Positions 58,015 through 64,000 are shown, numbered from the stretch's first letter. The stretch: DNA of 64,000 nt from Octopus vulgaris (GCA_951406725.2 OX597816.1:172918001-172982000), one strand, 5' to 3'. Program-made: numbers and translations. The notes: generated by a model not told the origin, from the sequence alone.

Positions 58015-58537
58015 GCTATTCAGTTTTATCCCAAGATTTCTTGCCAAAAAAGAAAGAGTTGGTTTCTAGCTTAGATCCAAGGCTCCTTTATTGGAATTTC
58101 AACAACATCATCAGGGTATTTTTATATGTATGTATTTGTGCAGGATTGTATGTTTTGTTTTATGTATGTATTCTCATTCACATAGATGTATGTCTGTATA
58201 TGCTCATATTTACTTAAATGATAAACTTCTGGAAAGTTTTACAGATTTTTACAGTTCCAGTGATTTATTGGATTTGTAGTCTTCAAATCAGCTTTCTCCT
58301 TTCTGGTTTTGAGAACCCTAATTTCTCAAGATTGGTATTTAGGCAGTACGTTACATATCACAGTGCCCCAATAATTACAGGTATAAACTTAAACTTGTAA
58401 TCTGGATAGAGCAACTGTAGATTTCTCAATAGTTCAGCGTATTTTCTTTTTCGCTGATCTTCAGCTTTATATTAACATCCGCTGAGCAGCTGATTTCCAC
58501 AGCTGTGCACAGTTTCTCTTCTCTATTCCAAATCACT
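58015..58537 (-). mobile_element. RLE retrotransposon family D4, 3' fragment abutting (CATA)n
   Basis: Homologous to 62860-63167; 5' junction at the (TATG)n block starting 58538. Confidence 0.85.
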
Positions 58538-59106
58538 ATGTATGTATGTATGTATGTATGTATGTATGTATGTATGTATGTATGTATGTATGTATGTATG
58601 TATGTATGTATGTATGTATGTATGTATGCATGTATGTATGTATGTGTGTATGTATTATGTACGTATGTATGTACGTATGTATGTATGTATGTGTGTGTGT
58701 ATGTGTGTATGTATGTGTGTATGTATGTATGTATGTATGTATGTATGTGTGTATGTATGTATGTATGTGTGTGTATGTGTGTATGTATGTATGTACGTAT
58801 GTATGTATGTATGTATGTATGTATGTATGTATGTGTGTGTGTATGTGTGTATGTATGTGTGTATGTATGTATGTATGTATGTGTGTATGTATGTGTGTAT
58901 GTATGTGTGTATGTATGTATGTATGTATGTGTGTATGTATGTATGTATGTATGTATGTATGTGTGTGTATGTATGTATGTATGTATGTTTGCATGTATGT
59001 ATATATGTATGTATGCATGTATGCATGTATGTATGCATGTATGTATGTATGTATGTATGTATGTATGTATGTATGTATGTATGTATGTATGTATGTATGT
59101 ATGTAT
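58538..59106. repeat. (TATG)n microsatellite block
   Basis: Direct inspection. Confidence 0.95.
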
Positions 59107-61699
59107 GATTATCTCTCAGTTCCTGAAATATCCGTGAAGTCAGTCTCACTAGCCCAAATAATAATTATTCTTTTAAACTTTTACTGTTTCCAGTCTCTGG
59201 ACTGCAACAAGGTTTTTCGTCAATCACTTAATCTCCTCCACACATTTCGGTCTTTTTCTAAATTTACCGCCCTCTAATTATCGGATGGTGAAGGTACTTT
59301 TTGGTTTGAAGGAGCACAACTCGATATACGAACACTCACCCTGCCCCTTCCCACATATTTACAAATACATGAGTGTGTGTGTGTGTGTGTGTGTGTGAGA
59401 AAGAGAGAGACAGAGTGTGAAGATTCTAACAGGAAAACCACTACACAGGATATATATATGTATGTATGCATGTATGTATGAATGTATGTATGTATGTATG
59501 TATATATGTATATATGTATATCTATCTATCTATCTATCTATCTATCTATCTATCTATCTATCTATCTATCTATCTATCTATCTATCTATCTATCTATCTA
59601 TCTATCTATCTATATATATATATATATATATATATATATATATATATATACATATATATTCATATATATATATATATATATATATATACATATATATATT
59701 AATCTTGTGTAGTTATATTATCGCCATTTTGATATTTACCATCAAAGTTCCAAAGTTAACTGAACTACCAAATCGTATATAGATGGCGCTACATTTATTC
59801 AAGCAGAGCTAATCATGGCTACTCAACAGCATCATCATCATCATCATCAACATCACCATAACCACAAAAACCACTACCACCACCACCACCACCACCACCA
59901 CCACCACTACTACCACCACGACTACCATCACCATCATCACCATCATTATCATCATCACCATCATCATCATCGTCGTCATCCTCGTCGTCGTCGTCGTCAT
60001 TATCATCGTCATCATCATCATCATCATCATCAATAATAACATCAACAATAGCAACAACAGCGAAACAATACAGAGAGCCAATTATCTTTTTGAAATAGAA
60101 TTCACAGAAATACATCAAAGAGTTATTTTATAACTACAGAAGGATTTGGCGCACACACACACACACACACACACACACACACACAGAGGCAGAATTACAG
60201 ATATATATTGTTAGAATGTATGTATACAATAATGTAATAAACGTGCTCTCGCACATACATACATACACACATATAGACACATACACACATACATACATAT
60301 ATACATACATACACACATACATATATACACACGTACATACATACATACATACATACATACATACATACATACATACATGCATACAAAATGCATCTATACA
60401 TACATGTACACATACAAACAGCATTTACAATGCGTATAAATAATGTATACAATATAATACGTGTGTGTTGTGTGTGTGTGTGTGTGTGCGCGCGCATGCG
60501 TCCGCGTGTGCGTGTGTTTGTGTGTGTGTGTGTGCTACAAAGAGTGTTTTTTTTTATGTGTCTATATACATGTAACTCATGATCAGCCAGATTCATATAA
60601 AAGCAGTTTCTCTGAATCCTACTTCAGCGTGGTACTTATGTTAATAAAAGCAGCCATTTTTTTTTTTTTGTTTGACTACGAGGAATGGCTGCTAGGAAGA
60701 ATCCTGTTGACTCTGGCTTCAAAACATTACTGTCACGGAATCCTGCAAGTGCTGCATATGGACACATTTATCTACAGTAGCCTAAACCGTGTCTGAGTAG
60801 AGAGAAATTTATATGGAGTGACTGTCTTCAGATAATCTTGGCTGTCTTTGTTAATGAAATTATATTTATATCATGATGGCTGACTTATCGACAAATATTT
60901 CGGACATATTTGTGTTCAGTTTTGAACCTGAATGAAACACTCAAACGGTCAACTATTTTGTGATTTATCAGCTACCAATACTTGATTTATTTATATGTTT
61001 GTAGGTACGCATGAAAATTCTCCCAGTGTTAAATGTTCAGTGTTAAATGTTAAATGTTTTGTGCTTAATTGCTATCGGCAAACTATTTTCCTCGTTGTCA
61101 TTAAATAATTAATAAAATATTCCTTAAATAGGAATTGTTTCGTTAATGACGAACTGTCAAAAGCACAAATTTGTAAATTGGTTATCCAATACGGTGCTAG
61201 CCTTATTTCTGACAGTTTTATAGTGAAGTTGATCTATACTATTAATTAGGGAATGGGGCCAGGACTACATCTTTGAAGAGTTTGTCAATAAAACATGAAA
61301 CGATTCGTTTCTCCACACATCACTAACATAGAAAGACTGTGCATACATTCTTATTGCACCTACAATGAGACACACACACATACTCCCCCCACACACACAT
61401 AAACATATGCGCTTGGGTGAATGCGCATGGCATCATTTCATATATATATATATATATATATATATATATATATATATATATATATATATATATAAATAGA
61501 TGTATATTTGAAAAAATATTTGTATAATTATATTTAAATTAAAATATAAATATATTTATAGAAGTTTAGGTGAGGGAGATGGTAGAAAGACAGATGTAAC
61601 TTATCATGAGGGGTGTAATATCCATGTGCCTGTGGATAGATATAGATAGATAATATAAATAATATATGTATGCATGCATATATATATATATATATATAC

Positions 61700-61868
61700 G
61701 CATATATGGGTACAGGACGTCACAAACTGTAAACAACATGAAATACGAAAACAAGCGAGTTAAATACGCAAACAATGAGAGAGAAAAATTGGAAACAGGA
61801 CAAATAACACAAAGGACGACCCTTCATCAGTTGTCGACTGTCTATTCTACTCCTCGTTTCGAGCAGTC
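61700..61868 (-). mobile_element. Second copy of the 33730-33925 repeat
   Basis: Reverse-complement homology (gctcgaaa.gaggagtaga...caactga.gaagggtcgt). Confidence 0.7.
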
Positions 61869-62474
61869 ACTTTTGCTGCCGTAGTTCAAAGGCTTTTAGA
61901 CACAATGCGTTTCACTATTTTGCTGTCGATCTCTGTGAGCTTCGTCTTCCTTCCATAATTATACTTGCCAGAACTAGGTCTGTATTGCTTTTGGAATGCC
62001 AACGATGCTTTTAGAGACTGCAAGGTTTTTAGTAAATGAAATCCAACAAGTTGTCCCTTGGGAAACCAGATAGATCACGCATTTTAACTTATTTAAATAT
62101 AACTATCTGTAAAATAAACGCAGGGCTATATCTTGAAGCACAGGGTATGCCTAATATACATGAACACATATACACAGACTTGAACAGTTTTGAATTTGTC
62201 GTGCTAAAAAAAAATGGTTCAATAAAAAGTAATGTTTTTATTATTTTGGGCCGCTCTTGCATATATCTACACACATATATATATAAACACACGCATACAT
62301 ATACATATATATACATACATACTTACATACATAAATACATACATGCATTCATACGTACATACATACATACGTGCATACATACGTGCATACATACATACAT
62401 ACATACATACATACATACATACATACATACATACATACATACATACATACATACATACATACATACATACATAC

Positions 62475-63167
62475 CTACAATAGCCGGATTACTACCTCCC
62501 ACTTTAAAGGGTATGCGTTTGCAATCCAGGAACAGTAAATATCAACCAAGTACCTGATGCACAAAAGGGGTAGAGATGCGGGAAAAGCAGTAAAATGTGA
62601 CAACCGATGCAGACCTTGTGGAGTTCATACTGAAGATATCACCCACATCATAAGCGGTTCTCTGAAAATATCACCACGGTATTTTCTTCTGATGAGACAT
62701 GATATTGTAGCTAGGACACTATAAATGACAAAGGACAAAGAAATAAACACCCACAATATAGTAGAAGCCATAGCAACTCACAATGAAAAGGAATACTGGT
62801 GGAATGTACCAGTGAAAACCTCAATAAAATGTAAGTACAACAGACCTGATATAATGATTTGGGATTGAGAAGAGAAACTGTGCACAGTTGTGGAAATTAG
62901 CTTCCCAGCGGATGTTAACATAAAGCTGAAGATCAGTGAAAAAAGGAACACCTATGCTGAACAATTGAGAAATCTACAGTTACTCTATCCAGATTACAAG
63001 TTCAAGTTTATACCTGTAATTATTGGGGCCCTGGGATACGTAACACACTGCTTAAATACCAATCTTGAGAGATTAGGGTTCTCAAAACCAGAAAGGAGAA
63101 GGGTAATTCGAAGACTACAAATCCAATCCATCACGGGAACTGTAAAAATCTGTAAAACTTTCCAGAA
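62475..63167 (+). mobile_element. RLE retrotransposon family D4, 5'-truncated (CCHC + RLE), decayed
   Basis: TSHFKGYAFAIQEQ, CRPCG..HIISG, RHD, NRPDIMIWD..VVEISFPAD..PVIIGALG. The 5' junction is directly in (CATA)n. Confidence 0.87.
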
Positions 63168-63305
63168 TACAGTTTTATATTTAAGAGATGAGGAATTGTG
63201 TACATTATTTACATTATTTACTATTGACAGATATTTGTCCTCATCATGTTCGTTGTTAACACAGCGTTTCGGCTGATATACCCTCCAGCTTTTATCAGCC
63301 GAAAC
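63168..63305 (-). mobile_element. PLE pseudo-LTR fragment with a decayed hammerhead and a 13-bp terminal inversion
   Basis: Minus strand ctgataa-aagctg..cagcc-gaaa-cg. gtttcggctgata (63266-78) is inverted at 63293-305. Confidence 0.6.
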
Positions 63306-63309
63306 TGAT

Positions 63310-63547
63310 ATTGTTGGAACAACAGGATACATACCAGCCAGTCTGGAAGAAAGTGTAGCTGAACTTGGGTTCTTGGAGAAAGAAAGCGAATCCTTAATTC
63401 ATACACTGCAAATGATCACCGTATCTGAAACTATAAAAATCTATAAAACCTTCGTAAGATTTAAAGGATGATGAACAAAACAAAATGCTGTTCTTCGCAA
63501 CCGAGCAGGTGACCAGTCGAAATTTACTTTAAATTAAAAGAAGAGAA
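63310..63547 (+). mobile_element. RLE retrotransposon family D5 3' end (D4 relative) followed by (CATA)n
   Basis: IVGTTGYIPASLEESVAELGF..LIHTLQMITVSETIKIYKTF aligns by eye to the D4 C-terminus IIGALGYV..LERLGF..LQIQSITGTVKICKTF. Confidence 0.7.
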
Positions 63548-64000
63548 CATACATACATACATACATACATACATACATACATACATACATACATACATTC
63601 ATGCATGCATGCATACATACATACATACACACACACACATACATACATACATACATGCATGCATACATACATACATACATACATACATGCATGCATACAT
63701 ACATACATACATACATGCATGCATACATACATACACACATACATGCATGCATACATACATACATACATAATGCATACATACATACATACACACATACATA
63801 CATACACACATACATACATACATACATACATACATACATACATACATACATACATACACATACATACATACATACATACACACATACACACACACATACA
63901 TACATACATACATACATACATACATACATACATACATACATACATACATACATACATACATACATACATACATACATACATACATACATACACACACATA
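63548..64000. repeat. (CATA)n microsatellite block
   Basis: Direct inspection. Confidence 0.95.

Follow-up and report, generated by a model that had tools for sequence, protein, structure and literature searches.

Background

Dong retrotransposons, which carry a restriction-like endonuclease (RLE), insert into (TAA)n in most insects, molluscs and cnidarians according to the accessible part of PMC7998251, from which we also take the label Myb-like for the N-terminal domain, and both Dong and R4 possess a hepatitis delta virus (HDV)-like ribozyme (PMC3774820, accessible part). Other RLE elements that target microsatellites are Togen, found at (TG)n, and the microsatellite-specific HERO families, which are placed near NeSL/HERO in the accessible text of PMC4640811. 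For Octopus vulgaris, 51 Dong-R4 families have been reported in a study in whose accessible text the word "target" does not occur (PMC13282606). Here, we analyzed a 64,000-nucleotide (nt) stretch of the O. vulgaris genome (GCA_951406725.2 OX597816.1:172918001-172982000; the window), in which fragments of two families of R4/Dong-type long interspersed nuclear elements (LINEs), D4 and D5, adjoin arrays of the four-base repeat (CATA)n.

Change of target in RLE retrotransposons has, to our knowledge, been studied almost only in R2. We found no RLE element described as targeting CATA or CTTA in the literature accessible to us, including the accessible parts of PMC3636483, PMC7650587, PMC13580325, PMC8967140 and PMC5035012; Repbase, Dfam and the survey tables of Fell et al. 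2025 could already list the clade. We propose, with a probability of roughly 0.6, that D4 and D5 belong to an old branch of R4/Dong-type LINEs that cuts and inserts into C-[A/T]-T-A repeats in one orientation. The targets likely differ by host, with CATA used in octopus and a second host, and CTTA in another.

Results

Junctions of D4 and D5 in the octopus window

Both families are represented by truncated fragments in AT-rich, microsatellite-full animal DNA, arranged as follows.

57975..58012, minus strand: 3' flank of D4 copy 1, with (CA)7, TGCATA and short CATA runs, C first, at 58012 (from sequence)
58013..58536, minus strand: D4 copy 1, a 5'-truncated LINE with the endonuclease C-terminus (stop at 58214-58216) and about 200 nt of 3' untranslated region (3'UTR; from sequence comparison)
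58056..58085, minus strand: D4 3'UTR hairpin, counterpart of the hairpin of relatives, with 4 of 6 inner pairs retained and 60 nt from loop to junction
58537..59107, minus strand: (CATA)n array, showing partial decay into CACA, where D4 copy 1 has its 5' junction (from sequence)
62295..62474, plus strand: (CATA)n array, pure from 62386, where D4 copy 2 has its 5' junction (from sequence)
62475..63167, plus strand: D4 copy 2, 5'-truncated, 230 codons including 3 stops, with a CCHC-like knuckle and a PD..E endonuclease remnant, without 3'UTR
63168..63303, no strand: unrelated stretch separating D4 copy 2 from D5, with an inverted repeat (63264-63305) at its end
63304..63547, plus strand: D5, the last 55 codons (stop at 63469-63471) and 76 nt of 3'UTR, a second family of the same clade
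63548..64000, plus strand: (CATA)n array, C first, at the 3' junction of D5, continuing past the window edge (from sequence)

The array edges at 58537, 62474 and 63548 all read CATA on the sense strand of the element, as the original prediction had claimed, and the protein motifs quoted there are present in the sequence. On the 5' side of D4 copy 1, the array starts from 58537 and the unambiguous element lies at 58536; comparison with copy 2 reveals three bases (ATA) that fit target and element alike, i.e., microhomology. At the 5' junction of copy 2, the array extends to 62474 and the element begins at about 62475. The two copies are 89.9% alike over 317 nt in a self-comparison, and copy 2 lacks the 3' end, with homology ending at 63167. 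The 3' tip of copy 1 is placed at 58013 by the hairpin spacing described below, 4 nt past the tip given previously; it adjoins (CA)7, followed by TGCATA and decayed CATA runs, rather than a pure CATA array. A resemblance between the 3' tips of D4 and D3 that had been proposed reduces to an 8-nt match, which 25 of 500 shuffles also attain; what remains of the D3 string is its (TAA)n target.

Sense-strand CATA-class arrays occupy 1.0% of the sites in the window, or 0.36% without the tested arrays. If insertion is assumed to be random, the chance that three sites fall in any one repeat class on the sense strand is 1.2e-5; since D4 copy 2 and D5 may both adjoin what was once a single array, two independent sites are the fairer count, for which the chance is 1e-3 under the same assumption. 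When the window's CATA tracts are ranked by length, three of the top four directly adjoin D4 or D5. The other CATA arrays have no detectable clade sequence alongside, the two D4 5' arrays likewise show none on their upstream side, and the window holds no CTTA array. (TA)n and (CA)n combined cover more of the window than CATA does, and the CATA arrays of octopus pass gradually into CACA and CATG. A 526-bp CATA-class tract at 19703-20228 has no detectable D4 or D5 sequence adjoining it.

Comparison by tblastn and of the window with itself also revealed three Dong-like families, D1-D3, with their mapped junctions in (TAA)n: TAA units were found in 11 of the 12 junctions read, the exception being the D1 5' stretch. 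D4 shares 26.6% identity with the Dong-like D2 over 192 aligned residues, and among named sequences it comes closest to proteins of Octopus bimaculoides, at 63% and 72% identity. The D4 fragment has no match in Pfam, and scans of viral and GTDB contigs returned no relative.

Relatives flanked by four-base arrays

When metagenome contigs were searched with 21 aligned homologues, 125 relatives emerged; among the 79 loci listed, the 18 closest (L001-L016, L018 and L056) were examined. Sense-strand arrays are present in 11 of these 18 contigs, (CTTA)n in 10 and (CATA)n in one (L015), antisense arrays in none; seven have neither form. Full-length elements at L001, L003, L005 and L009 begin after (CTTA)n, with L005 having (CTTA)n on both sides, and L013 is 5'-truncated within a degenerate CTTA tract in the manner of D4. 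The 3' tip is reached in seven contigs (L004, L005, L006/L007, L011, L016, L015), all of which join a C-[A/T]-T-A array, and the register is constant: these seven junctions and that of D5 all meet the array at the C of the unit. In families whose open reading frames (ORFs) are about 68% alike, the last 116-181 nt are 81-89% alike, as far as the array edge. L001 and L013 sit behind the tip and array of another family, i.e., copies stack. Judged by GC content, L015 derives from a different host.

CATA units are mixed into CTTA in the 5' array of L009, and the 3' array at L007:3748-3901 grades from CTTA to CTGA to CGGA units. In L003 and L005, short GC-rich hairpins occupy the extreme 5' end, within 30 nt of the array. 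Among the 61 loci at greater distance, most have three-base arrays; in L024, L030 and L038, a four-base array lies at least 1.4 kb from the match.

A deep clade apart from the (TAA)n families

Two unrooted trees were built without a named reference or outgroup, and what they resolve is confined to the separation from D1-D3-like proteins. The C-terminal tree (90 rows, quick search, no bootstrap) omitted the near-duplicates P0044, P0073, P0074, L006 and L008 and kept one in five of the distant proteins; the reverse transcriptase (RT) tree (48 rows) used every third distant protein. In the former, D4, D5, L015 and the CTTA elements fall on one side of a branch with a Shimodaira-Hasegawa-like approximate likelihood ratio test (SH-aLRT) support of 100, with D1-D3 and the distant loci opposite, and the RT tree recovers the same split through full-length kin (support 100). 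D4, D5 and their CTTA/CATA kin form one deep clade apart from the (TAA)n Dong families of the window. D4 and D5 share this clade but are not sisters: D4 groups with an O. bimaculoides protein and D5, with 19% of columns filled, lies in a 12-row subclade with L015. CTTA is used in the distant families L009/L011 and L001-L005/L013, and CATA in D4, D5 and L015 across two subclades.

Protein architecture

L001, L003, L005 and L009 encode single ORFs of 1153-1202 codons in which the RT is followed by a CCHC knuckle, a motif found in all 27 full-length clade proteins. In the C-terminal PD-(D/E)xK endonuclease, P1038, D1039 and K1070 are invariant in 96 aligned proteins, and the strict pattern occurs in 17 of the 27. 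The N-terminal domain is homologous to the Dong-like N-terminus (hhalign 98.1%, E 8.8e-14), and none of the 27 proteins has an N-terminal zinc finger. The RT motif reads FVDDLK in 23 of the 27, versus [FY]MDD[LI]K in 55 of 59 proteins of the Dong-like group. A structural model of L005 (predicted local distance difference test, pLDDT, score of 89.7) predicts three N-terminal helices at 19-73 and has seven R2 structures as its best matches (E 6e-35 to 3e-28). Judged from sequence, ORF layout, endonuclease and Myb-like N-terminus are those of an R4/Dong-type element. The (TAA)n target of Dong sensu stricto is absent, the flanks being CATA or CTTA, with L004 ambiguous.

A covarying hairpin in the 3'UTR

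The aligned 3' ends of the relatives contain a stem-loop with a UUGU(U)-type loop. Its distance from loop to array is 51-63 nt in six relatives and 60 nt in D4, where it lands on the first C of (CA)7; this spacing fixes the D4 tip and indicates that the arrays start at the true element ends. In a seven-row alignment, each of the six inner stem pairs varies at both of its positions, with 95% of the 42 cells paired, the two unpaired cells both belonging to D4. None of 500 shuffles was as good, and slid controls were 21-55% paired. A strict terminal hairpin was found in 7 of 16 contigs tested (six families), all seven running into an array, and the other nine lack both; the strict pattern has no match in the window's 128 kb. 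The hairpin of the relatives folds with z-scores of -2.65 to -4.08, and the whole last 110 nt with only -0.07 to -1.62.

Rfam searches at E<=1 in six loci gave no ribozyme match, and an HDV-like loop motif was absent from all four full-length 5'UTRs, although divergent ribozymes may escape both.

Size of the D4 family

Contigs matching D4 copy 1 number 21,422 in set X1 and 15,574 in set X6, covering the coding part and the 3'UTR, so D4 is present in high copy number in sets with two different organism labels. Among the matches listed, contigs leave the D4 3'UTR into (TATG)n at 58125 (71 and 69) and 58135 (77). These exits from a CATA patch of the 3'UTR may represent internal expansion, self-insertion or spurious matches and were not used. 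The 3'UTR itself holds short CATA runs at 58113-58175. Also among the matches listed, 86 set-X6 contigs share only the last 90 nt of D4 (58104), joined upstream to an A-rich stretch; these tails could be a 3'UTR variant or a non-autonomous partner.

Other features of the window

The inverted repeat at 63264-63305 has the look of what we take to be a Penelope-type hammerhead fragment, and an Rfam search found none there. The Rfam searches otherwise returned nothing except repeat-driven microRNA and small nucleolar RNA matches with scores under the curated thresholds. A weak match at 24332-24576 was dismissed, as no convincing ORF could be read there. At 16393-19513, two Dong-like families lie head to tail in one (TAA)n array, as L001 and L013 do in (CTTA)n. 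A 400-bp inverted duplication at 22399-22805 (88% alike) has a D3-like 3' tip at either end, and positions 1-845 hold an 80-bp tandem repeat (10.6 copies, 99% matches).

Discussion

A model of insertion into C-[A/T]-T-A repeats

By analogy with the biochemistry of R2 and Dong, a single protein consisting of a three-helix Myb-like N-terminus, RT, CCHC knuckle and RLE would bind its own RNA through the 3'UTR hairpin, recognize the repeat and nick the TA[T/A]G strand in a position that brings the newly made 3' end to the C of the unit. The RNA would then be copied through target-primed reverse transcription (TPRT), and the 5' end would attach within that array, frequently at an early point and through microhomology. 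If the RNA ends in repeat units, the nick would lie deeper in the array than the junction suggests. Stacks such as those at L001 and L013 could arise when later insertions enter the array that lies behind an earlier one.

Several observations weigh against this model. The octopus evidence comprises three CATA junctions and one mixed CA/CATA tract rather than family-wide counts, and the sole 3' junction of D4 is (CA)7 and not (CATA)n; two raw-read sets were uninformative on junctions, as their 12 and 33 reads all fell on a CATA-rich patch. Outside octopus, the CTTA contigs probably derive from one kind of host, given elements 97-99% identical across assemblies, and the second CATA host is represented by a single junction (L015). 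Short-read contigs also tend to stop at microsatellites. L004 starts in (TAA)n, which is ambiguous as it is in frame as poly-Asn at the contig start, and L011 begins about 115 nt ahead of its ATG with no array. The hairpin stretch was picked by eye and its seven rows are related, which makes the controls flatter the result, and both D4 and D5 form the hairpin weakly (z -0.92 and -0.55, respectively).

The fixed-polarity preference for four-base repeats put forward in the original prediction is nevertheless supported, mainly through the relatives outside octopus, with octopus itself contributing the few junctions just named. As a probable property of an old and widespread branch, it is better supported than it first appeared. 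Members of the deep clade flanked by CTTA or CATA occur in two or more further hosts, and the data favor a preference of the lineage over a local switch.

Alternative explanations

The arrays might instead be mostly self-made tails of reverse transcription, with 5' arrays arising when repeat tails anneal to older tails and little sequence being read. L001 and L013, which start behind another family's tip and array, would fit such a process, as would the contact of D4 or D5 with most of the longest CATA tracts, and microsatellite tails have been described for octopus RTE elements in the accessible part of PMC9115989. Yet D4 copy 1 has its array on the 5' side and no pure CATA tail, and neither D4 5' array is preceded by detectable clade sequence. 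We consider this origin unlikely; annealing would in any case still require a nick in the array, which is compatible with insertion into C-[A/T]-T-A repeats as proposed above. More improbable still is a looser preference of the octopus families for alternating CA/TA-rich repeats, of which CATA would merely be the commonest case. The (CA)7 end of D4 copy 1 and the grading of octopus CATA into CACA and CATG agree with it, but three of four junctions are CATA in a window where (TA)n and (CA)n together exceed it, and the relatives are strict for CTTA, a non-alternating repeat.

A recent switch of target by a (TAA)n Dong family within the octopus genome, as originally predicted, would account for the shared domain layout and the homologous N-terminal domain. 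This scenario now seems very improbable in view of the long, fully supported branch between the D4/D5 clade and D1-D3, the 26.6% identity, the different RT motif, the four-base-flanked kin in other hosts and the separate positions of D4 and D5. Chance adjacency deserves equally little credence: junctions are few and 10.6% of the window's sites lie in some microsatellite class, but the chance is about 1e-3 even for two independent sites, and the same pattern recurs in 11 of 18 relatives' contigs, with antisense arrays in none.

Beyond insertion into C-[A/T]-T-A repeats as such, it is tentatively conceivable that an undescribed, multi-phylum R4 branch reads a degenerate code (TAC every four bases), settles on CATA or CTTA according to the repeats of the host, and through stacking helps to build the very long CATA arrays of octopus. 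A degenerate reader is suggested by the repeat type following the host rather than the tree; a single CTTA-to-CATA change on an unresolved branch accounts for the tree equally well.

Significance and comparison with known systems

The clade combines a Dong-like protein with a simpler, different target and offers natural variants one base apart (CATA and CTTA). It further provides four intact ORFs in elements with both ends present, along with a confident structural model and a candidate signal in the RNA, so the role of the R4 Myb-like domain in DNA recognition becomes directly testable. The clade also bears on the origin of the abundant four-base microsatellites in cephalopod genomes and is a candidate scaffold for RNA-templated gene insertion.

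Among known systems, the clade resembles Dong of Bombyx mori and D1-D3 in its single ORF with a Myb-like N-terminus without zinc fingers, RT, CCHC knuckle and RLE, and it shares with Dong a microsatellite target, fixed polarity on both flanks and stacking in arrays. Unlike Dong, it is flanked by CATA or CTTA instead of TAA, forms a separate deep clade, and has the FVDDLK motif and a 3'UTR hairpin of its own; the HDV-like ribozyme core that Dong and R4 possess was not found in its four full-length 5'UTRs, where divergent ones may escape the searches. Togen and HERO likewise combine an RLE with a microsatellite target, but use other repeat units, a distinction drawn from descriptions rather than sequences. 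The closest solved sequences and folds are those of R2 (the R2Bm, R2Tg and R2Pm structures), which also provides the TPRT model, whereas R2 targets 28S ribosomal DNA and carries the N-terminal zinc fingers that the full-length proteins of the clade lack.

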